Origin: an uncultured Verrucomicrobiae bacterium
Lineage (GTDB): Bacteria; Verrucomicrobiota; Verrucomicrobiia; Limisphaerales; Palsa-1400
NCBI GenBank assembly: GCA_963707025.1
Contig: CAVPOM010000010.1
Coordinates: 96,001-160,000 of the forward strand
Length of the DNA stretch: 64,000 bases
Direction of reading: 5' to 3'
The notes beneath the pieces were generated by a model that worked only from the letters and a program-made list of their open reading frames with translations, made no database searches and was not told the DNA's origin. Each line of letters starts with the position of its first letter. The stretch's first letter is position 1. The translations under genes and the position numbers were made by a program. Shown here in pieces: positions 3,213 to 38,298 of the stretch.

Positions 3213-4469
3213 TTGAGAAACGTGAAGACCTTCCCACATCTTGTCAACTTTCTCCTGACGATGGCCAGCGCGGCGGCGCAACCGCTCTCCAACCTGGTCT
3301 TCAACGTGGGAACCACCATCCAGGACACCGATCTTCAGAATTGGTCCTACGTTCTGCTGGGTTCCCCGCAAGTTCAGCTTCTCGCCGGCCAGCGCTTTGC
3401 CGTCTATGGCAAAAACGGTTTGCCGGCGGACCCCGGCGCCTTCACGCTGCGCGGCACGATTTTCCAGCAAAGCGACACCACCGCCATCAATAATCTGCTC
3501 AATCAGTCGGTGGCGCTGGGCGAGGATTTGAGCGCGCTCGACGCCGCGCTGGGGTTCTTGTTGCGGAATGTGCCTGGGATCTCCAGCCAAACCCTGCCGC
3601 AAAAAGTCCTCACCGCTTTCCTGACCGCCGCGGGCGACCCGACCACCGCGCCCGCGTTGATGGTGCTGGCCCGCTTGCATCCCGGTTTCAATCTTTGTTC
3701 CGGCCAGGCCTTCTCGGAGGTAATCAGCGCCACCACCACCTACGAAGTGCGCGAAGTTGACCCGGCCAGCGGACTGCCCGACGAGGTGGTGGGACGGGTC
3801 ACGATCATGCCCGGCGCGCCGGTCGTTTTGCCCGCGCCCGGCTATCCCTTCCAGGTCGTGACCAATGCGACCAGCGATCATCTGCGCATCCGGCTGCGCT
3901 GGGGCACGCCCGACGCCTTGCGCCGATTGTCGCTTTTGCAATTCGGGTTCAATGTCTGGCGCATTGCGCTCGCCGCCGCCCTGGCCGGCAACTTCAACAC
4001 CACGCCGCCCACGACCGCCGCGCTGACCTCGAATCCCGATTTTACGCGCGTCAATACTATGCCGGTGCTGGCCATGACCGATTACGCGCCGCTGGACGGG
4101 CCGGGCGGACCGAACGATCCGGCGGATACCTCGACCTGCTTTTTCTCGGACCGCAACGGACGTTCGCCCGGCATCGCGCAATTTCCGCCGACCAACACTC
4201 CGCCGGGCTACCTGGCCGCTCCTTTCAACGATGGCGACCAATTCTATTACTTCATCACCGCGCGAGATGTTCTGGGACGCGACGGCCTGGTCTCGCCGGG
4301 CGGACTGGGCACCGCCTGCCGGAAAAGGCCGCCGCCCGCGCCCATGAATTTACGCGTCTTCAATAAGACGCAGGTCCTGCTGCTGGGCGGAGGGCAGACG
4401 ACGAACCAGGAACAATTGCTGCTGCACTGGGCGTTCCGTTCAGCCCGCCTCCGACCCCGCCCGTGCTGA
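3213..4469 (+). CDS. N-terminal part of a large secreted protein (Fn3-like beta-rich region)
   Basis: Signal-like N-terminus and motifs RLRWGTP..FNVWR and FYYFITARDVLGRDG; the frame degenerates after about 4430. Confidence 0.65.
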   Translation: MRNVKTFPHLVNFLLTMASAAAQPLSNLVFNVGTTIQDTDLQNWSYVLLGSPQVQLLAGQRFAVYGKNGLPADPGAFTLRGTIFQQSDTTAINNLLNQSVALGEDLSALDAALGFLLRNVPGISSQTLPQKVLTAFLTAAGDPTTAPALMVLARLHPGFNLCSGQAFSEVISATTTYEVREVDPASGLPDEVVGRVTIMPGAPVVLPAPGYPFQVVTNATSDHLRIRLRWGTPDALRRLSLLQFGFNVWRIALAAALAGNFNTTPPTTAALTSNPDFTRVNTMPVLAMTDYAPLDGPGGPNDPADTSTCFFSDRNGRSPGIAQFPPTNTPPGYLAAPFNDGDQFYYFITARDVLGRDGLVSPGGLGTACRKRPPPAPMNLRVFNKTQVLLLGGGQTTNQEQLLLHWAFRSARLRPRPC

Positions 4470-5899: not shown

Positions 5900-8104
5900 T
5901 TACTTATCGACGACTTGGAAGTCACGCGTGGCCCGGATGTCTTCCGAGGAGGCTCCGATCATGATTTGGAAGGTCCCGGGCTTGACGTGAAAGGCATGGA
6001 TGGATTCATCGTAGAAGGCCAGCTTCTCGCCTGGGACGGTGATTTCCACCTTCTTCGTTTCGCCGGGTTGCAGGTGAACGCGTTGGAATCCGCGCAGTTC
6101 CTTGATGGGACGCTTCACGCTGGGATTCTCTTCGTGGACGTAGAGCTGGACCACTTCGTCGCCTTCGCGTTTGCCGCTGTTGGAAACTTCGATGGCGGCG
6201 GTGATGCGGCCGGTTGACGCTATTTGGAGATCGGACAATTCGAGGCTGCCATATTTGAAGGTGGTGTAGCTCAGCCCGTGGCCAAAAGGAAAGAGCGGCT
6301 TGCCGCGCTGATACATGTAAGTGAAACCCTTGGTCACGTCATATTCGTCCTGCGGCGGAACCTGGTTGGTTGAAGCATAGACCGTGAGCGGCATGCGCCC
6401 GGCGGGGTTCACATCACCGAAAATGACATCAGCGATGGCATTTCCGCCTTCCTCGCCTCCCCACCAGGCTTCGATCAACGCTGTCGCCTGCTCGGCAATC
6501 CAAGGCTCGGTCAGGGGGCCGGCATTCATTTCAACAACCACGGTGCGGGGATTGGCCGCGACCACTGCCTTGACCAGTTCCAGTTGATTGCCCGGCAGGG
6601 CGAGCGAGACGCGATCCCGGCCCTCCGCTTCGATATCGAGGGTAGTGCCAACATAAACGATGGCGACATCCGCTTTCGAGGCGGCGGCGGCGGCGGTTTG
6701 GATTTCGTCGCTCTTTTCGGCGGGCGTACGGGCCGGGGTGCCACGTCGAGGCGGTGCGATCTCGCCGCCCTGTACATAAAGAACCTCCGTGCCGGGAGCC
6801 ATGCGGTTTTTAATGCCGGCGAGTGGCGTCACCGCATTGCTCACCCGTCCGCTGTAACCGCCGGCGGTAAAGATGTTCGCATGCGGCCCAATGACGGCGA
6901 TAGTCTTGATTGTAGAACGGTCCAAGGGAAGGAAATTGCTTTTATTGCCGAGCAGAACGATGGCTTCGCGTTCCGCCTGGAGCGACAATTGGCGGTGTTC
7001 GGGGCTGCCGATGACGCTCATGGGAATCTTGCTGAACGGAACCTGTTCCGGCGGGTCGAATTCGCCGAGGCGGAAACGGTCGCGCATCACGCGGAACACG
7101 GCATCGTTCAAGCGGGCTTCCCCCAACTTGCCCTCGCGAACCGCGATGGGGATGTTGGTCATAAATTCGGCGTCGGAAAAATCACAGCCCGCGTTAATTG
7201 ACAACGCGACGGCATCCACAAAAGTCATTTTGCCCGCCTCGTGGCCACGAACCATGGAATTGACGCCGCCCAGGTCGGAGACCACGAAGCCTTGGAAGCC
7301 CCATTGTTGCTTGAGGATGTCGGTCAGCAGGAACGTGTTGATGTTGTTGGGAGTGCCGTTGATGGCATTGTAAGAGGCCATGACGGACTGGGCCTGGCCT
7401 TCGACGATGCAATCATGGAAGTGCGGCAGCCAGAATTCGTGGAGCATCCGCTCGCTGACCGTGGCGGAGAGTTTCTGGCGGTCCTGCTCGACGTTGTTGA
7501 CGGCAAAATGTTTGAGGGTGGCAGCCAGCTTCAGATATTTCGGATCCTCGCCCTGCAGGCCCTTGACATAGGCAACGCCCATCCGGCCGGTAAGAAAGGG
7601 GTCCTCGCCAAAACATTCATTGATGCGGCCCCAATATGGATTGCGGCTGATGTTGATGACCGGGGCGCGATAGATCAGGCCCTTTTTCTGCCCGCGGAAA
7701 TTCGGATCCTGATGCCAGCCGTTGTAGATGGCACGGGCTTCGTCTGAAATGGAACTGGCGACCCGGTTGACGAGGACGGTGTCCCAAGTGGCGGCCAGGG
7801 CAATCGAGACGGGAAACATGGTCGTGGGACGGTCCCAGACCACGCCGTGCAGGCACTGGTTCCATTTGTCGGATTTGATGCCGAACCGCTCGATGTCCGG
7901 ACCGACGTGGTTGAGCAGGATGCCCTTCTCCTCAAGGGTGAGGCGGGAAACAAGGTCGTTGACGCGGGCATTGACCGGCTGGGCGGGATCCAGATAGAGC
8001 GGCTTGGAATTATCCTGGGCAGCAGCAAATGTTGACAGGCACAACCCGAAGAGGCTGGCGAACCACCGCGATAGAATGAGTCTTTCTGGCTTCATGCTCT
8101 GCAT
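5900..8104 (-). CDS. Glycoside hydrolase family 3 (beta-glucosidase/xylosidase) with Fn3-like C-terminus
   Basis: Motifs RNPYWGRINECFGEDP, LKHFA, GFVVSD (nucleophile), EAEGRDR, FPFGHGLSYTTF and ELRGFQRV; signal peptide. Confidence 0.95.
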   Translation of the reverse strand: MQSMKPERLILSRWFASLFGLCLSTFAAAQDNSKPLYLDPAQPVNARVNDLVSRLTLEEKGILLNHVGPDIERFGIKSDKWNQCLHGVVWDRPTTMFPVSIALAATWDTVLVNRVASSISDEARAIYNGWHQDPNFRGQKKGLIYRAPVINISRNPYWGRINECFGEDPFLTGRMGVAYVKGLQGEDPKYLKLAATLKHFAVNNVEQDRQKLSATVSERMLHEFWLPHFHDCIVEGQAQSVMASYNAINGTPNNINTFLLTDILKQQWGFQGFVVSDLGGVNSMVRGHEAGKMTFVDAVALSINAGCDFSDAEFMTNIPIAVREGKLGEARLNDAVFRVMRDRFRLGEFDPPEQVPFSKIPMSVIGSPEHRQLSLQAEREAIVLLGNKSNFLPLDRSTIKTIAVIGPHANIFTAGGYSGRVSNAVTPLAGIKNRMAPGTEVLYVQGGEIAPPRRGTPARTPAEKSDEIQTAAAAASKADVAIVYVGTTLDIEAEGRDRVSLALPGNQLELVKAVVAANPRTVVVEMNAGPLTEPWIAEQATALIEAWWGGEEGGNAIADVIFGDVNPAGRMPLTVYASTNQVPPQDEYDVTKGFTYMYQRGKPLFPFGHGLSYTTFKYGSLELSDLQIASTGRITAAIEVSNSGKREGDEVVQLYVHEENPSVKRPIKELRGFQRVHLQPGETKKVEITVPGEKLAFYDESIHAFHVKPGTFQIMIGASSEDIRATRDFQVVDK

Positions 8105-28997: not shown

Positions 28998-29083
28998 CCT
29001 TGCCGGCAGGCCAAAGCCCTCATACCCGCAGTCGAAGGAATCCACCAACGGGCGCGAATTGCGCCAATCCTGGGTGAAGTGGT

Positions 29084-29132
29084 GGAGTAACGGAGTGGTG
29101 GAGTATTGGAGTGATGGAGTGATGGAGTGATG
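29084..29132 (+). repeat. Degenerate GGAGTGAT octamer tandem repeat
   Basis: About six units, same motif as the array at 38107-38298. Confidence 0.8.
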
Positions 29133-29245
29133 AGCACGGCGGCTGCAAAAAACACCTTGATTAGGGGAATTATATACAATCTTACACCGCCGCCAGCCGC
29201 CTCCAAACCGGGCAAAGCGTTGACCGAAAGGACGTTCCATGAAAT

Positions 29246-29512
29246 TTAAGCGGTGGCCTTCGGCAGTTCGGGGGCTTCTGGAAGGAATAAAATCCGGTAT
29301 TGGAATTCATGTTCGACGGCTTGACGTATGGCAAGACCGAGGAACGGCAGCCCATCATCTGAGACAATCAGCCAGGTCCCTGCATTCAGGATTTCGACAC
29401 CTTTACTGGATGATGAGTCATCTTCAACGGCTTCTACGATCTGCCACCATTTATGTTTTCTTTTATCGTCGGAATCGGACGGACGTTTCACAACAAAGAG
29501 GATTGAGTTCAT
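29246..29512 (-). CDS. Hypothetical cargo protein (88 aa)
   Basis: ATG ORF just downstream of, and co-oriented with, the RM gene inside the transposon. Confidence 0.6.
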   Translation of the reverse strand: MNSILFVVKRPSDSDDKRKHKWWQIVEAVEDDSSSSKGVEILNAGTWLIVSDDGLPFLGLAIRQAVEHEFQYRILFLPEAPELPKATA

Positions 29513-29865
29513 GTCCCGAATCAGAGGGCCAAGAGGCGGGGGATGTCAAGCGGTGAAACCGTTACGGCTTGCGTCCCCGTTTCTTTGGCGTGGCTGGCAA
29601 CAACGGGGCGGTGAATTTCTCATAAAGCGCAAAAAGGAACCCCACACGCTCCCGGTCTGACCGAAACGGCTCCGGGCGGTAGCACTGCTCCACGGCACGA
29701 TCAAGTTCCGTGTGGGCTTTCGACAAGGCGGGAGGCATGGTGAGGGGGTCGTACAAATCAGCAATCGTGCCCGTGCCTCTCGGAGGCAAATGCGGCTCAC
29801 GCGCTTCAAGAACGATTTTTGCTTTACTATTTATTCGGTCACGCTGGCTATCGGTGACAATCGGC

Positions 29866-31359
29866 TGAGGTGGACCCCATCCTTTAGACCACGGAGCGCA
29901 TGAAATAAGCGCGACTTTTGCCGATTGCTGTCATTACTAATTGTAGTTGACTACTGTTCATTCCGTGTTTCAAAACCCTTTCGAAAAGAGAGAACGAGCG
30001 ATGCGGAGCACTGCCCGTCCTCCCTCTCCGTTTTCTTAGGGTTCTCAACTCTACCGCCGCAGGCGGTCTGATTTCAAGCCTTTTCCTGCCGCCTGCCTCT
30101 CTGTCAAGTGCTGCGATCGCTCCTGCCTCTGGCAGGTTGCATCGCTTCCCATTTGGCCGGTTGGGCTCCATGCGTGCCGGGATCAAAATACGCGTCCGCC
30201 GGCGTCGCATAGCCCAACGCCTGGTGCGGTCGTTCCCGGTTGTAGCCGTCAAACCACCGGCCCAGTCCGCGCCCTGCCGCCAACCCGTCGCCATAGTCTT
30301 GCAAATAAATGTCCTCATACTTGGCGCTCCGCCACAGCCGCTCGATAAACCGGTTGTCCATCCAGCGACCCCGTCCGTCCATGCTCACGTCCACCCCCGC
30401 CGATTCCACCGCATCAATAAACATCGGGGAGGTGAACTGCGATCCCTGGTCGGTATTGGAAATCAACGGCGCCTGACGCCCCGCCCGCAACGCCGCCTCC
30501 CAAGCGTCCACACAAAAGTCCGCCTCCAACGTGTTGCTCAAGCGCCATCCCAGCACGTAACGACTCCACCAATCCATCACCGCCACCAAATACATAAACC
30601 CAGTTGCCATAGGCACATACGTAATGTCCGAACACCAAACCTGATCCGGTCCCGTCACTGCCAAATTGCGTAACAGATACGGATAAATCTGGTGCCCCAT
30701 CTCCCGCAGACTCGTCTTGGGCTTGGCGTAAATCGCCTCGATCCCCATCAACCGCAGCAGCCGCACCACCCGTTTGCGATTGATGGTCAAACCCTCCCGG
30801 CGCAACAGCACGGTCAGTTTGCGGCTGCCATAAACCGGGTGGTCCAAATGCATCTGGTCCAACCGCCGCATCAGCGCCAGGTTCTCCTCTGTCTCCGGAC
30901 AGCACTGGTAATAATAACTGCCACGGCACACCGCCAGCAGCTCGCACTGGCGCCGCACGCTGAGCTGCGGATCGGGAGCGATTAAACATGTTAAAGCCCC
31001 AGTTGCCTGGACTTTTTTTTAAGCCAGTCCAAGTCCACCGTCAGTTGGCCAATCTTCTCATGCAGTTGGGCAATCAACTGTTCCTGATCCTCCGTGCGGG
31101 GTTGCCCGGGCTCAAACAATTCGGGCATGTGATCCCGAATCGTCGCCCGCCACTGCGTGACCTGCGCCGGATGCACCGCATACTCTCGCGCCAATTGCGC
31201 GACCGTCTTCAGCCCCACCAGGGCTTCGAATCCCACTTTGGCCTTGAAGGCCGCACTGTGTCTTTTCCGTTTTGCTTTCATAAGTCTGCTCTTTCTTATC
31301 TACAGCAAACCGGCAAAAATCGAAACTTACCTGTGGTCTAAAAATAGGGGTCCAGCTCA
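29866..31359 (-). mobile_element. IS3-family element, copy 2 (orfA 30991-31281, orfB 30104-30958)
   Basis: Same IRs as copy 1, GGC TSD at 29863-29865 and 31360-31362, intact ORFs. Confidence 0.97.
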
Positions 31360-32138
31360 GGCCAAGGGAAATTGTTGTCACACTATTGTGTTGGAGTATT
31401 GATAACGGCTTTCCAAGCGACCACCTTTCACATCCAAGCCATGTGCATAATGGATGACAAAACTCCGAAATGGAAAGGTTGAGCGTTGGGGACAATCAAA
31501 GAACTTCCATTAGCGACCACCTCAGATTTAAGAAACCCCAAAGGGAGATATTGTCTTCGTTCGGACGAAACCTTCGGAAATAATAAGTAGTCATCATTTG
31601 GCTGTCTATCCTCGCCGACAGACGCGGGCGTTGATGCAAGCTCGATAGTTGGCGGTTTCTTGCTTGCCGCACGGAACCTGCGAACTGCCTCGACTCGTTC
31701 CAGAATTGGAGGACAACTCCGAATATCATTCGGCGACGCACGTTCCAGCCAAAGCACCCACCGCTTCGTGCCGTTGAGAAACTCATCCCCACCTGTAAAT
31801 GGCCGGATAACATGCTCCGTGAACGGATACCCCTGAATCAGTTCCTCCCTTTCCTTTGCATCCAGAATGAAATGCCCATCGTCCACCAACTTTGTTCCGA
31901 AAACCATTTCAGGAACCCCGCACAGCGGCCTTGCCCGGTAGAGAACGACGATATTTTGCGCGTCCGTCAAATACGGACTGATATTCTTGACAGAAAACGA
32001 ATGTGGATCGCCTCTAGGGTCATCGTGCTACTCGAACAGCCTTTTCGTATCGGCTGGATAAGCAGCAAAACCAATTATTACAACATGGACATGCGCCTTT
32101 CCGCGCGCCTCGCTTTGCCACGCAAAAGTTCGATGCGC

Positions 32139-33632
32139 TGAGGTGGACCCCATCCTTTAGACCACGGAGCGCATGAAATAAGCGCGACTTTTGCCGATTG
32201 CTGTCATTACTAATTGTAGTTGACTACTGTTCATTCCGTGTTTCAAACCCCTTTCGAAAAGAGAGAACGAGCGATGCGGAGCACTGCCCGTCCTCCCTCT
32301 CCGTTTTCTTAGGGTTCTCAACTCTACCGCCGCAGGCGGTCTGATTTCAAGCCTTTTCCTGCCGCCTGCCTCTCTGTCAAGTGCTGCGATCGCTCCTGCC
32401 TCTGGCAGGTTGCATCGCTTCCCATTTGGCCGGTTGGGCTCCATGCGTGCCGGGATCAAAATACGCGTCCGCCGGCGTCGCATAGCCCAACGCCTGGTGC
32501 GGTCGTTCCCGGTTGTAGCCGTCAAACCACCGGCCCAGTCCGCGCCCTGCCGCCAACCCGTCGCCATAGTCTTGCAAATAAATGTCCTCATACTTGGCGC
32601 TCCGCCACAGCCGCTCGATAAACCGGTTGTCCATCCAGCGACCCCGTCCGTCCATGCTCACGTCCACCCCCGCCGATTCCACCGCATCAATAAACATCGG
32701 GGAGGTGAACTGCGATCCCTGGTCGGTATTGGAAATCAACGGCGCCTGACGCCCCGCCCGCAACGCCGCCTCCCAAGCGTCCACACAAAAGTCCGCCTCC
32801 AACGTGTTGCTCAAGCGCCATCCCAGCACGTAACGACTCCACCAATCCATCACCGCCACCAAATACATAAACCCAGTTGCCATAGGCACATACGTAATGT
32901 CCGAACACCAAACCTGATCCGGTCCCGTCACTGCCAAATTGCGTAACAGATACGGATAAATCTGGTGCCCCATCTCCCGCAGACTCGTCTTGGGCTTGGC
33001 GTAAATCGCCTCGATCCCCATCAACCGCAGCAGCCGCACCACCCGTTTGCGATTGATGGTCAAACCCTCCCGGCGCAACAGCACGGTCAGTTTGCGGCTG
33101 CCATAAACCGGGTGGTCCAAATGCATCTGGTCCAACCGCCGCATCAGCGCCAGGTTCTCCTCTGTCTCCGGACAGCACTGGTAATAATAACTGCCACGGC
33201 ACACCGCCAGCAGCTCGCACTGGCGCCGCACGCTGAGCTGCGGATCGGGAGCGATTAAACATGTTAAAGCCCCAGTTGCCTGGACTTTTTTTTAAGCCAG
33301 TCCAAGTCCACCGTCAGTTGGCCAATCTTCTCATGCAGTTGGGCAATCAACTGTTCCTGATCCTCCGTGCGGGGTTGCCCGGGCTCAAACAATTCGGGCA
33401 TGTGATCCCGAATCGTCGCCCGCCACTGCGTGACCTGCGCCGGATGCACCGCATACTCTCGCGCCAATTGCGCGACCGTCTTCAGCCCCACCAGGGCTTC
33501 GAATCCCACTTTGGCCTTGAAGGCCGCACTGTGTCTTTTCCGTTTTGCTTTCATAAGTCTGCTCTTTCTTATCTACAGCAAACCGGCAAAAATCGAAACT
33601 TACCTGTGGTCTAAAAATAGGGGTCCAGCTCA
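32139..33632 (-). mobile_element. IS3-family element, copy 3 (orfA 33264-33554, orfB 32377-33231)
   Basis: Same IRs; imperfect 4-bp TSD GCGC/GTGC whose removal restores the host frame F-A-H-R. Confidence 0.97.
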
Positions 33633-35373
33633 GTGCGAAATGAATGCTAAGGTGATACCGACAAAACACCTCATTCCAAAGAATGCTTACCTGTTCGCCT
33701 TGGGTGATTGAATTTGTTGACACAAACGCAACTTTAATTCTGGTTCCTTGAATATATTCGGCAGCCTGCTGATACCATGAGCAAACGTAATCAAGGACGC
33801 CAGCAGCTTTTGAGTGCGTGAAAATTATATCCATGTCGGCCTTTTGTTCTAGGTTTTGCTCTTTCTTGCCGACAAACGGTGGATTACCGAGAACGTAGCT
33901 GCACAGTTCAGGCCGTAAAATCTCCTTCCAGTCAAGTCGGAGCGCGTTTCCAGGAACAATCGTCGGGGACTTTTTAAGGGGCAGGCGTTGATACCATTGC
34001 CCGAAGGCTTGCGAGATTTTCACGTTCATCTGGTGATCCATCAGCCAGAGTGCAACCTCGGCAATTCGCACAGGCCATTCGAGAATCTCAATGCCGTAGA
34101 ACTGGTCCACGTTGACCTTTGACAATTTGGTGATCTCCATTTCCGTTTGCCCCCCAAAAAGTTCCTTGAGCGTTTCAAGTTCAAGTTGGCGCAGTTCCCG
34201 GTAGGCGATGACGAGGAAGTTGCCGCAGCCGCAAGCCGGGTCCAGGAACCGGAGATTGCAAAGTTTGTCTTGGAATTCCTGCAAACGCGCCCGGCGCCCG
34301 GTTGACCGGTCGGCCTTACGGTTTTCAAATTCGGCGCGGAGATCGTCCAGGAACAGCGAGCGGATGACCTTAAGGATGTCTCGTTCACTCGTATAATGCG
34401 CCCCAATCTGGCGGCGGTCCTTCGGTTGCATTACAGACTGAAAGAGCGAGCCGAAAATGGCCGGGGAGATGCGCGACCAATCCTTGCGTGTGCAAGCAAG
34501 GAGCGCGTTGCGCATGTCGGCATTGAAATCAGCAAAATGAAGCTGTTCGCTAAAAAGCTCACCGTTGACGTGGGGAAAGCAGGCCAGCGTTTCATCGAGA
34601 TTTTTCTGGCGTTTCTCAGGTTCCGTGTTCAGGACATCAAAAAGCCTCGCCAATTTTTGCCCCAGGTCTGAGCCGTCCAGCGCGGTGCGATTCTCGATGA
34701 AAAGCCGGAATGATTCAGGCTCAAAAAGCTGAGTGCATTGGGCAAACAGGCAAAACAGGATGCGGACGAGGAATCGTTCAAGTTCATGGCCGCTGTAGCC
34801 GCCAGCCTTAAGCGCGTCGTGAAGGTTGCCCATGATTTCGACCGCCTCAATGTTGATCGGGTCTTGCTCGTGAAAGGTGTGCTGCTGGTAGCCAGCGATG
34901 AAGGCGAAATCGCTGATGTGGAGATAAAGTTCGGAAAGCGGAAATTCATGCGTCGCCCCGCGCTTTTCATTCGCATCCAGGTCGTGCAAGGCGATCCGCG
35001 CAAAATCAGACACGATGATATAATGGGGCAATTCAATGTCAGGGTTTTCATCAGCAAGCTCACGGATATAACCGAGCGCCTGTGTTTCGGCTTTGCTCAA
35101 ATCCTTTCCAAACGATTTATGTTCAACGAGCAGCTTGCCCGGCCAGAGGAGGTCAATGTAGCCATAATCGCCAGCCTTTTTCTTGACTGGCACTTCACAG
35201 GCGGCGACACGGCGGCGCTGGATTCCGAAGACCTGAAAGAAAGCGTTCCAAAACGTCTGTGATTCGGCGGTTTCACTTTTGACGCCCGTCCAATCTTTTG
35301 AAAAGGCAATGGCGTTGTGGCGGATTTCGTTCCAACTGATCGGCATGGGTCAGGATTCTGCCCCGAAGAATCG

Positions 35374-35418
35374 GGCCGTCAAGATTTCTGTTGACGGCCT
35401 TTGCTCGTTTGCTAGAAG
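35374..35418. promoter_or_regulatory. Back-to-back TTGACG -35 boxes forming a palindrome (putative divergent promoters)
   Basis: GGCCGTCAA-N8-TTGACGGCC; TGCTAGAA lies about 16 bp downstream on +, and CAGAAT lies 16 bp downstream on -, shortly before the RM start codon. Confidence 0.5.
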
Positions 35419-35423
35419 CGCGG

Positions 35424-35541
35424 CAACGGTGTCGAAACCGTTGAGAAATAGCGGGGACATTGATTTGCGACCCGTCATAGCTGGCCACCCGGCCACCGCT
35501 GCCCGCAGCGAGTTTCGACAGCTAGGACGGGTCCATTTTTT
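35424..35541 (+). ncRNA. C4-antisense-like structured RNA with upstream target hairpin
   Basis: Outer stem GACCCGTC-A-TAGCTG / CAGCTA-G-GACGGGTC encloses two small hairpins; internal GTTTCGACA is complementary to TGTCGAAAC (35430-35438) and CCGCT to AGCGG (35450-35454); a T-run follows. Confidence 0.6.
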
Positions 35542-35667
35542 ATGAACAGAAGAGTAATGGGCGCAACGCGGAGCCGAACGCGAAAGCGCCCGAAAAAATA
35601 AAAAGCACGGCCCGCTTGGTGATTCTTTGTCAAGACGCCAAGCGGGCCGGAGGCAAAACAGCAAGTT

Positions 35668-35741
35668 GCCAGTGTGGCGAAACGGCAAACGCAACCGCCT
35701 GTCGCGCGGTATTATTGCGGGTTCAAATCCCGCCACTGGCA
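35668..35741 (+). tRNA. Atypical tRNA-Asp (GTC), CCA not encoded
   Basis: Acceptor GCCAGTG/CACTGGC; D arm GCG...CGC with GG in the loop; anticodon stem ACCGC/GCGGT with loop CT-GTC-GC; T arm GCGGG-TTCAAAT-CCCGC; discriminator A. Confidence 0.85.
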
Positions 35742-35847
35742 CTTGAACCGTTGCGAGGCTCGCACGGAAAATGTCGAAAGTCAAAGATTTTTTGGTGTGA
35801 AAATCCACGCCCAAAAAGCAGCAGTAAAACTATTTTCAAATAATTAC

Positions 35848-35876
35848 TTGACAGAAGAACAAATTTAGTGTAATCT
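35848..35876 (+). promoter_or_regulatory. Sigma70-type promoter of the transposase (near-leaderless mRNA)
   Basis: TTGACA-17 bp-TAATCT ending 9 bp before the ATG at 35886; no Shine-Dalgarno sequence. Confidence 0.65.
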
Positions 35877-35885
35877 ACTACCAGA

Positions 35886-36807
35886 ATGAAAAACATATTG
35901 GATTTCAAAACGCTGATGGAGTTCACGGATTATTTCAAGGACGAGGCGACCTGCGTGGCGCACTTCACGGCCACGCGGTTCCGCAACGGGGAGTATTGCC
36001 CGCACTGCCACACCACCAAGATTTACAAATGCGCCGGCGGCAAGCGGTATCACTGTGCCAGTTGCAAGCAGGATTTCACCATCCGCACCAAGACGGTTTT
36101 CGGGGAGTCCAAGCTGCCGCTCCGCAAGTGGTACATGGCGGTTTATCTTCTTTCCACCACGAGCAAGGGCATATCGAGTTTGCAACTGGCAAAGCACGTC
36201 GGCGTCACGCAAAAGACGGCGTGGTTTATGGACCACCGATTGCGCTCGGCAATGAAACAGGACGGCGGGCAGATTTTTGGGACGGTCGAGGCGGATGAAA
36301 CCTACGTGGGCGGGGCCGTCCGCAACATGCACAAGTGGAAGGTGGACAGGTCGAAAGTGGGGACGGGCGGGAAGGGCAAGGCGATAGTTTTCGGGATGAA
36401 GCAGAGGGGCGGTCAGGTGCGGGCCAGGCTGATAGCGAACAACGGCTCCGAGCAACTCCATCCGGCCATTCAGGCGACCGTTGCCCCCGGTTCGGGTACT
36501 TTACACGGACGAACACCGGGGCTACAATGGTTTGGAAGGTTACAGCCGGACGGTGGTGAACCACAGCGTCAGGGAGTACGTGAACGGGATGGCCCACACG
36601 AACGGGATTGAGTCGTTCTGGGCGCTGTTCAAGAGGTGCTACCACGGCGTTTATCACTGGATGAGCCGGAAGCACCTTCAAAAGTACATTGACGAAGCGG
36701 CTTACCGGCTCAATCGCCGGGGCCAGGACATGAACATGGTGTTCGGGGAAGTTGTGGAACGAACAACAGATGGCGCGAAACTGCCGTATAAGAAGCTGAT
36801 CGAATGA
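35886..36807 (+). CDS. IS1595-family (ISXO2-like DDE) transposase; frameshift near 36495
   Basis: Zn ribbon CPHC...CASC, HTH, VEADETYVGG, LYTDE, HTNGIESFW and HLQKYIDE. Confidence 0.93.
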
Positions 36808-36968
36808 GCCGACCGCAGAAAATAATGCCGCCCCTCAAAGGCACGTTCACGGAGATCGTCACCGCTGTGGCCGATGGGAAGGGCTTCAAAAAGGCGAAGC
36901 CGAAGCTCATGGCGAACGAGCGCGCCACTGCGACGACGCCGAAACCGCCGCTGAAAAAAGGAACTTGA
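36804..36968 (+). CDS. Small basic protein (54 aa) coupled to the transposase
   Basis: ATGA overlap with the transposase stop; MSRPQKIMPPLKGTFTEIVTAVADGKGFKKAKPK... (below the ORF-track cut-off). Confidence 0.6.
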   Translation: MSRPQKIMPPLKGTFTEIVTAVADGKGFKKAKPKLMANERATATTPKPPLKKGT

Positions 36969-37001
36969 CGCCACCGGCATGTTTGGTGGAATCCAGGAAC
37001 T

Positions 37002-37229
37002 ATGAGCAAATTCAATCGTTCTCCAAAAGCTGACAGAACCGGCGGAATTGCCTGCAATTTGGCCCTTGGTGACATTACCATTTTAGACGTGAGGAATCAC
37101 GACTATGTGGTCATGGTTCGCAAAGGGACAGGTTCCAAGGAATGCCGAAGAACATTAGACGAGTTGAAGGCGAGGTATCAAGGCAGGAAACGGCGTTTGC
37201 CTGGCGTGGCTACGGTTGCGCCGCCTTGA
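37002..37229 (+). CDS. Hypothetical protein (75 aa)
   Basis: ATG preceded by AGGAA; overlaps the convergent ORF at its 3' end. Confidence 0.35.
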   Translation: MSKFNRSPKADRTGGIACNLALGDITILDVRNHDYVVMVRKGTGSKECRRTLDELKARYQGRKRRLPGVATVAPP

Positions 37230-37384
37230 TGTTCTCGAATACCATCCACAGAGTCCTCCTTAAAGAACTGGACTTCTTTGCCGTCAGCGGTTTGAAACGT
37301 GTATTGGCCGTTGTCGTGGACATATCCTTCGGCATTGACCGGAACTTCTTTTCCATTCTTGAGATGAACGTAAAATAATTTCAT
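37178..37384 (-). CDS. Small beta-rich hypothetical cargo protein (68 aa)
   Basis: MKLFYVHLKNGKEVPVNAEGYVHDNGQYTFQTADGKEVQFFKEDSVDGIRE, an alternating beta-strand pattern. Confidence 0.6.
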   Translation of the reverse strand: MKLFYVHLKNGKEVPVNAEGYVHDNGQYTFQTADGKEVQFFKEDSVDGIREHQGGATVATPGKRRFLP

Positions 37385-38106
37385 AATTCGTTGCTTCCGA
37401 CGCATGGAATCGAAAGTCCGGCAGGCGCGGATGTCAAGCGTCGAAGCCGCCGTGGCGGCCATCGCGGCGGGGACGGTTCACTGTAACATTATATATAAAT
37501 CCCTTGATTAGGCTTGATTGACCTTGTTGGAAATCGTGATGGAAATGGCCCCATTTTTGTCGTAAATTGTTCATGGAAAGGCACTTGAGACGATTTTTTG
37601 CAAAAAAGCTCATCCGTCGTCGCTTCGCAGTTGCGTGACCAGGGAGTGGTGGGCATGGTCAAGGTTGAAAACATGGTTTGACTGGGTGTGACCGGTTTGA
37701 CCGGCTGGGCGCAAATGCATCCTCCTCCGCAGGGCCTGCCGAGGACAGGAAATGCAAAATGCAAAATGGGAAGCAGGGCGGGAGCGATGAGGTTTTCATG
37801 GGTGCGGCAAATTGGGGCAGCACGGTTGCTTTGGGGACAGGATGAACGGGAGGCACAGGATTTTGAGCGTTGCAACCTGCGCGGTCCCGGCAGGGCCGGG
37901 ATTGGACATGGAACTTCTGACGCTTTGGCGTGTGCCGACGGGTCGGCGCCGCTTTGCTCTCCGGGAATCGTTCCCAATCCAAAAGCGGGAGCAAGCTCCC
38001 GCACTCCATAGACACCGCCCTCTTCACTATGCCAAATTAGCATTTAACCCAGGTGTTGTCAATGGGAAAAGGAAGGAAAAAGAAGGGGGGTTGAACCGGA
38101 GCAGCC

Positions 38107-38298
38107 GGAGTGATGGAGTGATGGAGTGATGGAGTGATGGAGTGATGGAGTGATGGAGTGATGGAGTGATGGAGTGATGGAGTGATGGAGTGATGGAGTG
38201 ATGGAGTGATGGAGTGATGGAGTGATGGAGTGATGGAGTGATGGAGTGATGGAGTGATGGAGTGATGGAGTGATGGAGCGATGGAGTGCTGGAGTGAT
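38107..38298 (+). repeat. (GGAGTGAT)n octamer tandem repeat, 24 units
   Basis: 21 perfect units (38107-38274), two variant units and one more perfect unit. Confidence 0.97.

Follow-up and report, generated by a model that had tools for sequence, protein, structure and literature searches.

The window, i.e., the whole stretch of 64,000 nucleotides analysed here, contains an 8.3-kb IS1595-family cargo element (29165 to 37503) that is found in a single copy in the genome. It is bounded by 22-bp inverted repeats at 29165 and 37503 (identical at 19 of the 22 positions), flanked by an 8-bp target duplication, TTGATTAG. The repeats enclose a tRNA gene (35668 to 35741, forward strand), an IS1595 transposase (35886 to 36807, forward strand; Pfam PF12760 and PF12762) and an MmeI-type restriction-modification gene (29562 to 35346, reverse strand; Pfam MmeI_N, hel, Mtase, TRD and C, and rve), an arrangement that identifies an IS1595 cargo element. 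The original prediction that the tRNA is transposon cargo is thus borne out by the repeats and the duplication around it. The transposase is preceded by a predicted promoter (TTGACA, 17 nt, TAATCT; 35848 to 35876, forward strand), with a similar site before related transposases. Its reading frame is shifted near 36494, probably by an assembly error; one base at 36494 is absent from a contig of run X1 that is 99% alike. The MmeI gene is split by two separate IS3-family insertions (29864 to 31360 and 32137 to 33633), and its pieces span contiguous profile positions (8-590, 591-848 and 852-949). This cargo is therefore dead in this strain, and the element may be decaying.

The surroundings hold two further features: a tandem array of the 8-mer GGAGTGAT on either side of the element (long at 38107 to 38298, shorter at 29079 to 29130) and a 6S RNA at 1630 to 1811 (Rfam).

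Close relatives differ in what they carry. L022 and L023 (transposase identity of 94%) share this layout and contain an intact MmeI gene (unbroken in L023) and, at the same spot, a different Leu-like gene (anticodon AGA, C33); that of L022 has a single G in the D-loop. In contigs X3, X13 and X16, from three studies, the leader promoter and the middle part are kept and the C4-like and tRNA parts are replaced (117 letters for 107). We saw no Leu-body tRNA in 78 of the closest 80 metagenome transposase relatives, many of which lie on short contigs. L031 and L057 have degenerate CTA/TTA tRNA-like genes inside the element ends (short-loop and imperfect; 4331 to 4406 and 1897 to 1971, respectively), in IS1595 elements with an additional transposase of the IS1 family. 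Contigs from two RNA runs cover the transposase and MmeI genes of relatives and not the tRNA, and have no bearing on its expression; the tRNA itself was found in none of the runs.

The tRNA gene was called by both ARAGORN and Rfam (RF00005; 62.4 bits, E 3.8e-11), and its sequence is that of a tRNA-Leu body whose variable loop is short and whose anticodon is GUC (Asp). The acceptor (7/7), anticodon (5/5) and T stems (5/5) are fully paired, and the D-stem has 3 bp (GCG/CGC) below a D-loop of 10 nt. The anticodon (35701 to 35703) lies in the loop CU-GUC-GC, with G37 and C38, the variable region has 6 nt (ATTATT), A15 (35682) pairs with U48 (35716), and G18G19, A20a and U54:A58 are present. A73 (35741) is directly followed by CTT, and the gene thus lacks an encoded CCA. 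The cloverleaf first described from the sequence (perfect stems, GTC, C38, A73, G37, 3-bp D-stem, 6-nt variable region, no CCA) is therefore recovered in full by ARAGORN, Rfam and the sequence; the fold z-score is only -1.65. The flanks (CAAG-T(T)/A-CTTG) do lengthen the acceptor stem at this locus, as had been proposed, but we rejected this pairing as a trait of the wider family: a strong flank duplex occurs in 4 of the 29 listed IS1595-linked tRNAs, for which the mean is -2.9 kcal vs -2.1 kcal with swapped flanks.

Leucine and aspartate identity of the tRNA

The passages of PMC9976931 on tRNA identity give A73, A15:U48, G18G19 and A20a for leucine, with the anticodon and the long arm dispensable for the E. 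coli LeuRS, and G73, G34, U35, C36, C38 and G2-C71 for aspartate, with the anticodon determinants strongest in bacteria and A73 unfavourable for aspartylation. The window tRNA carries the leucine set (A73, A15:U48, G18G19, A20a, U54:A58) and has GUC in place of the A35-containing anticodon of canonical tRNA-Leu. It also holds G34, U35, C36 and C38 (loop CUGUCGC), i.e., four of the five main Asp determinants, together with G10 and G1-C72, and has A73 and C2-G71 where tRNA-Asp has G73 and G2-C71. Judged from other bacterial and phage tRNAs, in which LeuRS tolerates either a long arm or a variable region of 5 nt and more, the 6-nt variable region would be acceptable: as described in PMC6614811, a bacterial LeuRS charges short-loop tRNAs, one variant keeping 14% efficiency and 5 nt sufficing in S. 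coelicolor.

Comparisons with other tRNAs point the same way. When the acceptor, D and T arms were compared with those of 76 host tRNAs, Leu(TAA) came closest, scoring 43, and the two tRNA-Asp scored 30.5 and 25. One of these has a normal G73 and an encoded CCA (C5:277555), and the second lies in a tRNA array. Since the host's own tRNA-Asp is normal and unlike that of the window, the latter is not the ordinary tRNA-Asp of this lineage, and the prediction of an atypical gene stands on this point. We then searched viral contigs for the acceptor, D and T arms of the window tRNA with the anticodon left free, and all 86 of the matches listed (80 of at least 124 viral loci) have Leu anticodons. When the body was combined with a short loop, A35 and A73, 61 of the 62 distinct tRNAs had a Leu anticodon (80 of at least 121 loci listed); these short-loop tRNA-Leu have U-rich loops of 5-6 nt and sometimes G37-C38. 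Exact patterns of the Leu arms with GTC, and of the promoters, had no match in the viral contigs. Common phage tRNA-Leu (L629-L708) combine a class II D-arm with a 5-6-nt variable loop.

A73, G37, the 3-bp D-stem, the Leu-like D-loop and the short U-rich loop are thus the design of a short-loop tRNA-Leu, and the label "tRNA-Asp" under which the gene was first described is misleading. Judged by sequence, the gene is a tRNA-Leu body with an Asp anticodon and not an odd tRNA-Asp. This design supports the mischarged tRNA among the options originally listed, and the host genome encodes both a LeuRS and one CCA-type nucleotidyltransferase.

It weakens another of these options, a converted spare tRNA-Asp, which AspRS would charge via the anticodon loop and which would be harmless, perhaps evading nucleases that cut tRNA-Asp. 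The Asp determinants of the anticodon loop, G10 and G1-C72 fit such a spare copy, and phage Leu-like D-arms can go with a cognate identity: with the A73 filter off, 47 of 81 phage tRNAs with Leu-like D-arms have GTT. Yet these cognate cases have G73 (by eye), whereas the window tRNA lacks G73 and G2-C71, its A73 is unfavourable for aspartylation (PMC9976931, in the passages cited above), the host already has two normal tRNA-Asp, and the anticodons of the family described below vary freely while A15:U48 stays constant (A15 being set by the search pattern). We thus regard a spare tRNA-Asp as quite unlikely. Many phage tRNAs (L255-L334) pair a Leu-like D-arm and a long arm with an Asn (GTT) anticodon and G73, and His and Ser types also occur.

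Related tRNAs and the terminal codon of transposases

A search of species genomes for tRNAs with a Leu body, a non-A35 anticodon and A73 listed 80 of at least 120 loci, with 81 tRNAs that have 30 different anticodons and come from many phyla; CCA is encoded in 21 of them. IS1595 transposases lie within 5 kb of 21 of these 80 loci (profile search), and other transposases adjoin 9 more (138 neighbouring ORFs scanned). As a comparison base not matched to those loci, 77 of 401 genomes from the order have an IS1595 of any kind. In viral contigs, IS1595 is beside the tRNA at 6 of 80 listed loci vs 0 of 80 loci with canonical tRNA-Leu, the latter having shorter flanks. Inverted repeats and a target duplication enclose both tRNA and transposase in 9 of the 27 listed elements. 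Evenly sampled genomes of the order carry such a tRNA in 5 of 401 cases, four of them beside IS1595 or IS1. Because gene callers label tRNAs by their anticodon, perhaps about one in a hundred bacterial genomes carries a mis-annotated and possibly mistranslating tRNA.

Across the 29 listed IS1595-linked members, 567 of 580 stem cells are paired, and U33 (27/29), purine 37 (28/29), U48 (29/29) and G1:C72 (27/29) are kept; A15 and A73 are forced by the search pattern. In 16 aligned members, all 240 stem cells are paired and 8 of the 15 pairs show double changes, i.e., the compensatory changes across homologues that had been asked of a functional tRNA. The variable loops of the 29 members have 14-21 nt, except for the 6 nt of the window; a long arm is thus present in 28.

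The neighbourhoods of family members contain other recurrent features. Second, degenerate tRNA-like genes lie by the Leu-body tRNA inside IS1595 elements (L411:5160-5232, L451:4838-4909, and upstream of those of L409 and L448). In L424, a Leu-body tRNA with TCT is located between a GSU0054-type cas gene and cas4-cas1, and a DUF5343 gene recurs beside the tRNAs of L375, L420, L442 and L454.

The transposases of one clade differ from the others at a site six residues into the terminal KRLxY motif. Leucine is encoded at this site in 91 of 96 background transposases, and one of the exceptions itself bears a tRNA. Among the 34 tRNA-bearing elements, 29 are assessable: 16 have at this site a codon readable by their own tRNA, 9 keep Leu and 4 have another codon. 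The codon/anticodon pairs are CCA/TGG in 11 elements, TAA or TAG/TTA in 3, CCT/AGG in 1 and GCG/TGC in 1 (L381, L401, L407, L410, L417, L421, L448, L454, L536, L588, L592, L404, L409, L383, L516 and L395). The match between codon and anticodon has a label permutation p of 5e-5, to be read with the fact that all 16 cases belong to one clade and are thus not independent. Where the terminal codon encodes Pro it is always CCA (11/11), vs 58 of 331 background Pro codons. The replacement of this Leu codon is indirect evidence that the tRNAs of the family deliver leucine. Four elements of the clade do not fit. L411 and L451 have a terminal CCA and a tRNA with CTA. We also found no tRNA near two transposases of the clade with a non-Leu codon (L246/L627 and host C12), and the matching tRNA predicted for L246 (CAG) failed to appear; the dependence is therefore not strict, or the partners were lost.

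The window transposase belongs to another clade of the tree and its terminal codon is CTG (Leu), i.e., not one that its own tRNA would read. A private code could still be in use if Leu at an Asp codon gated a protein of this or another mobile element, which the 16 own-readable codons in 29 assessable relatives make conceivable. In the window transposase, however, none of the 12 Asp codons falls at a Leu or hydrophobic column. Among the 52 Asp codons of the MmeI gene there is one weak case, a GAT at an Ile/Leu column of the recognition domain, and none at a column with at least 85% Leu. The small cargo ORFs match those of L023 by eye, in shallow alignments, with no change of Leu to Asp, and the terminal site in the other IS1595 of the host (C12) is GCC instead of an Asp codon. 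We consider a private code served by the window tRNA very unlikely.

The latter element (L626, C12:16.4-17.4 kb) encodes a transposase that ends in KRLTYRQ-Ala, and no tRNA was found within it. Other candidate sites were discarded: the Asp of WFM[D]HR is clade-wide (47/67), and stop suppression inside the transposases was rejected, as the ORFs are open and the terminal site alone is affected. In IS1 and other DDE neighbours (the L379 transposase frame left out), we found no convincing private codon. The L023 transposase (5980-6921) has no TCT or TCC, the codons that its AGA tRNA would read, among its 16 Ser codons; its twin L022 is the only other such case among 67 close relatives.

The leader and the antisense signals

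The leader of the window tRNA comprises, in order, a predicted promoter, an a1 hairpin, a C4-like RNA with a U-run and two more hairpins. The predicted promoter (TTGACG, 16 nt, extended -10 TGn-TAGAAG; 35391 to 35418, forward strand) is kept in L022, L025 and the X3, X13 and X16 contigs. It diverges from the MmeI promoter (35382 to 35355, reverse strand), and a consensus scan calls the MmeI promoter only. The putative C4-like RNA (35469 to 35541, forward strand) is a structured, terminator-like hairpin with a fold z-score of -5.0, and its a' bulge (35512 to 35520) is complementary to two own targets. One is the a1-like site in the leader hairpin (35430 to 35438, forward strand; 9 nt), the other an a2-like site of 8 nt after the tRNA (35772 to 35779, forward strand). 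The a' and a1 elements co-vary in L022, L024, L025 and L592, and according to a script, which parsed L588 wrongly, 5 of the 6 leaders have an own-specific a'; the b'/b1 pairing was seen by eye only. The Rfam C4 family has no match to the leader up to E 10. Searches with the leader DNA gave no match in plasmids or phages; in 401 genomes of the phylum, the matches were no more than short tRNA-like pieces. A short leader ORF is not conserved. Between the C4-like RNA and the tRNA, a GCCGAR-loop hairpin (35550 to 35600) is conserved in L588 and L592.

The tRNA fold might have a structural role only, as a handle for RNase P or 3' processing or as a module of the C4-like leader that never enters a ribosome. 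The processing signal of the original prediction gains from the position of the tRNA after a C4-like RNA (RNase P processes RNAs of this class, according to the part of PMC5320573 that treats it), from possible pairing between the 5' end of the leader and sequence on the 3' side of the tRNA, and from the L022 gene with C33 and a single D-loop G. Yet the related leaders of L024 and L025 have no tRNA, many members of the family lack a C4-like leader, and U33 and a purine at 37 are retained. A purely structural role thus seems highly improbable.

Signals on the other strand would fit an antisense transcript opposed to the tRNA. A predicted convergent promoter (-35 TTGACT, 17 nt, TGn, weak -10 GAGCCT; 35756 to 35784, reverse strand) scores only 7 of 12, with the a2-like site within its spacer; its -35 is perfect in 5 of 6 positions. 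A strong hairpin (35608 to 35649; fold z-score -6.4, -28 kcal) followed by a T-run on the minus strand forms a predicted antisense terminator (35592 to 35649, reverse strand), and homologous hairpins are found in L588, L592 and L022. Pairing of the anticodon with the window's own leader, whether T-box-like or as a same-strand antisense, was rejected (6 nt, p 0.75), and same-strand antisense copies in the listed IS1595 set are as frequent as expected by chance (3/31).

Among listed loci, an antisense -35 lies 20-60 nt downstream of 12 of 31 IS1595-linked tRNAs, 18 of 78 tRNAs of the family and 8 of 144 control tRNAs (Fisher 2.7e-4, kin not being independent), and at a greater distance in 5 of the 31. 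Strict antisense promoters follow 11 of 77 family members vs 3 of 139 controls at the listed loci, and the listed IS1595 set shows no enrichment of antisense terminators (9 vs 6 of 30). Another layout occurs at 13 loci without transposase, mostly from Gemmatimonadota (L387, L393, L397, L415, L428, L431, L432, L434, L437, L439, L440, L443 and L452), where the D and anticodon arms recur as an antisense copy (35-45 nt), with its own promoter and terminator, 45-110 nt after the Leu-body tRNA. The copy co-varies with the tRNA anticodon over 7 anticodons, so that these loci look like tRNA/antisense pairs; the group is defined by the feature itself, and without that selection 15 of 51 have it, compared with 9 of 77 controls. 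Such antisense partners suggest that Leu-body tRNAs are harmful.

Proposed mechanism and known systems

The reading that we favour, with a probability of roughly one half, is that this IS1595 transposon carries a Leu-charged missense tRNA for Asp codons, normally silenced and possibly toxin-like. Read-through past the C4-like terminator would produce a tRNA precursor, which RNase P, 3' trimming and CCA addition by the host would turn into a mature tRNA. The host LeuRS would charge it with leucine, and it would then compete with tRNA-Asp and insert Leu at GAC and GAU codons. The C4-like attenuator and the convergent antisense transcript would normally keep the tRNA low. The window leader can be aligned with the leaders of L588 and L592, which belong to the private-codon clade; this likeness suggests that the module of leader, tRNA and antisense promoter was swapped in from that clade, after which the anticodon would have changed. 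Since the window has no private codon to serve, mistranslation of host proteins is the effect that we infer. The tRNA might thus be a conditional toxin, with an addiction or abortive effect once repression lifts, e.g., in a new host without the C4-like RNA.

The same facts could also describe a disarmed passenger, i.e., a tRNA that descends from a private-codon one, that neither synthetase charges well and that, seldom expressed, hitch-hikes in a decaying element. This would account for the lack of a private codon in the window element, the loss of the long arm kept by its 28 listed relatives, the weak antisense -10, the MmeI gene broken by two IS3 copies, the absence of a tRNA from most close relatives and the modest fold z-score. 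It accounts poorly for four stems that are all perfect, for a short U-rich loop with G37-C38 that is a natural tRNA-Leu design and not a random loss, and for the other intact tRNA-like genes at the same spot in relatives (L022/L023, and the 117 letters of X3, X13 and X16). We therefore hold a disarmed passenger to be unlikely.

If the silenced missense tRNA is considered together with its family, a more tentative and more general scheme is possible, in which transposons combine a private code with an all-RNA toxin-antitoxin system. A Leu tRNA with a swappable anticodon would license the transposase in one clade and poison the host when unrepressed, and an anticodon-matched antisense would neutralise it; the window would hold a short-loop, Asp-to-Leu version under C4-like control. 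If these tRNAs are charged with leucine, a mobile element is able to introduce a codon meaning of its own and to couple its transposase to that meaning. In that case, nature would have a path to the ambiguous decoding that has been proposed for changes of the genetic code, and the family would supply a ready collection of natural suppressors of sense and stop codons, each with a matching RNA off-switch. If the window tRNA is, in addition, repressed by its antisense as predicted, it would be a mobile, built-in source of mistranslation.

IS1595 transporter IS carry passenger genes between inverted repeats, with an 8-bp duplication and variable cargo, and the window element shares their transposase domains, repeats, duplication and variable cargo. 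In the open-access papers searched, we found no tRNA passengers or private codons in IS1595 elements, nor any description of a transposon-borne family of Leu-body tRNAs. The mutA and mutC alleles of E. coli are reportedly anticodon mutants of glyV that read Asp codons; they would thus also place another amino acid at Asp codons, but they are laboratory mutants with Gly identity. Phage short-loop tRNA-Leu share their whole body design with the window tRNA and have Leu anticodons. The type I tRNA-Leu(CAA) of S. coelicolor, in the part of PMC6614811 devoted to it, accepts leucine with a loop of 5-6 nt, but likewise has a Leu anticodon. The C4 antisense RNA of phages P1 and P7, as outlined in PMC5320573, has a structured leader and an a' bulge complementary to flanking sites that varies with its target. 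The window leader shares this bulge, but has no match to the Rfam C4 family, precedes a tRNA instead of icd/ant and sits in an IS.

Natural mistranslating tRNAs are already known. The allo-tRNAs, in the main accounts of Mukai et al. 2017 (PMC5389517) and a review (PMC7609411), are natural bacterial tRNAs whose identity disagrees, as in the window, with their diverse anticodons, GUC being common; they are found near transposon and toxin-antitoxin genes, and Ser-type missense allo-tRNAs induced in E. coli led to missense suppression and cell death (PMC5389517). They are defined by an 8/4 or 9/3 structure, a long D-stem, a long arm and Ser or Ala identity (G73/U73 or G3:U70), whereas the window tRNA is 7/5 and Leu-type, has a 3-bp D-stem, a 6-nt loop and A73, and is carried by a delimited IS1595 element. 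The nematode nev-tRNAs, as reported by Hamashima et al. 2012 (PMC3333845), derive from tRNA-Leu, have non-Leu anticodons, are charged with Leu only and read GGG as Leu in vitro; in that account they are eukaryotic and chromosomal, require the long arm and have no described link to transposons or antisense RNAs. What the window adds to these systems is a short-loop member with an anticodon for Asp sense codons, a transposase clade without private codon, a C4-like leader and antisense partners.
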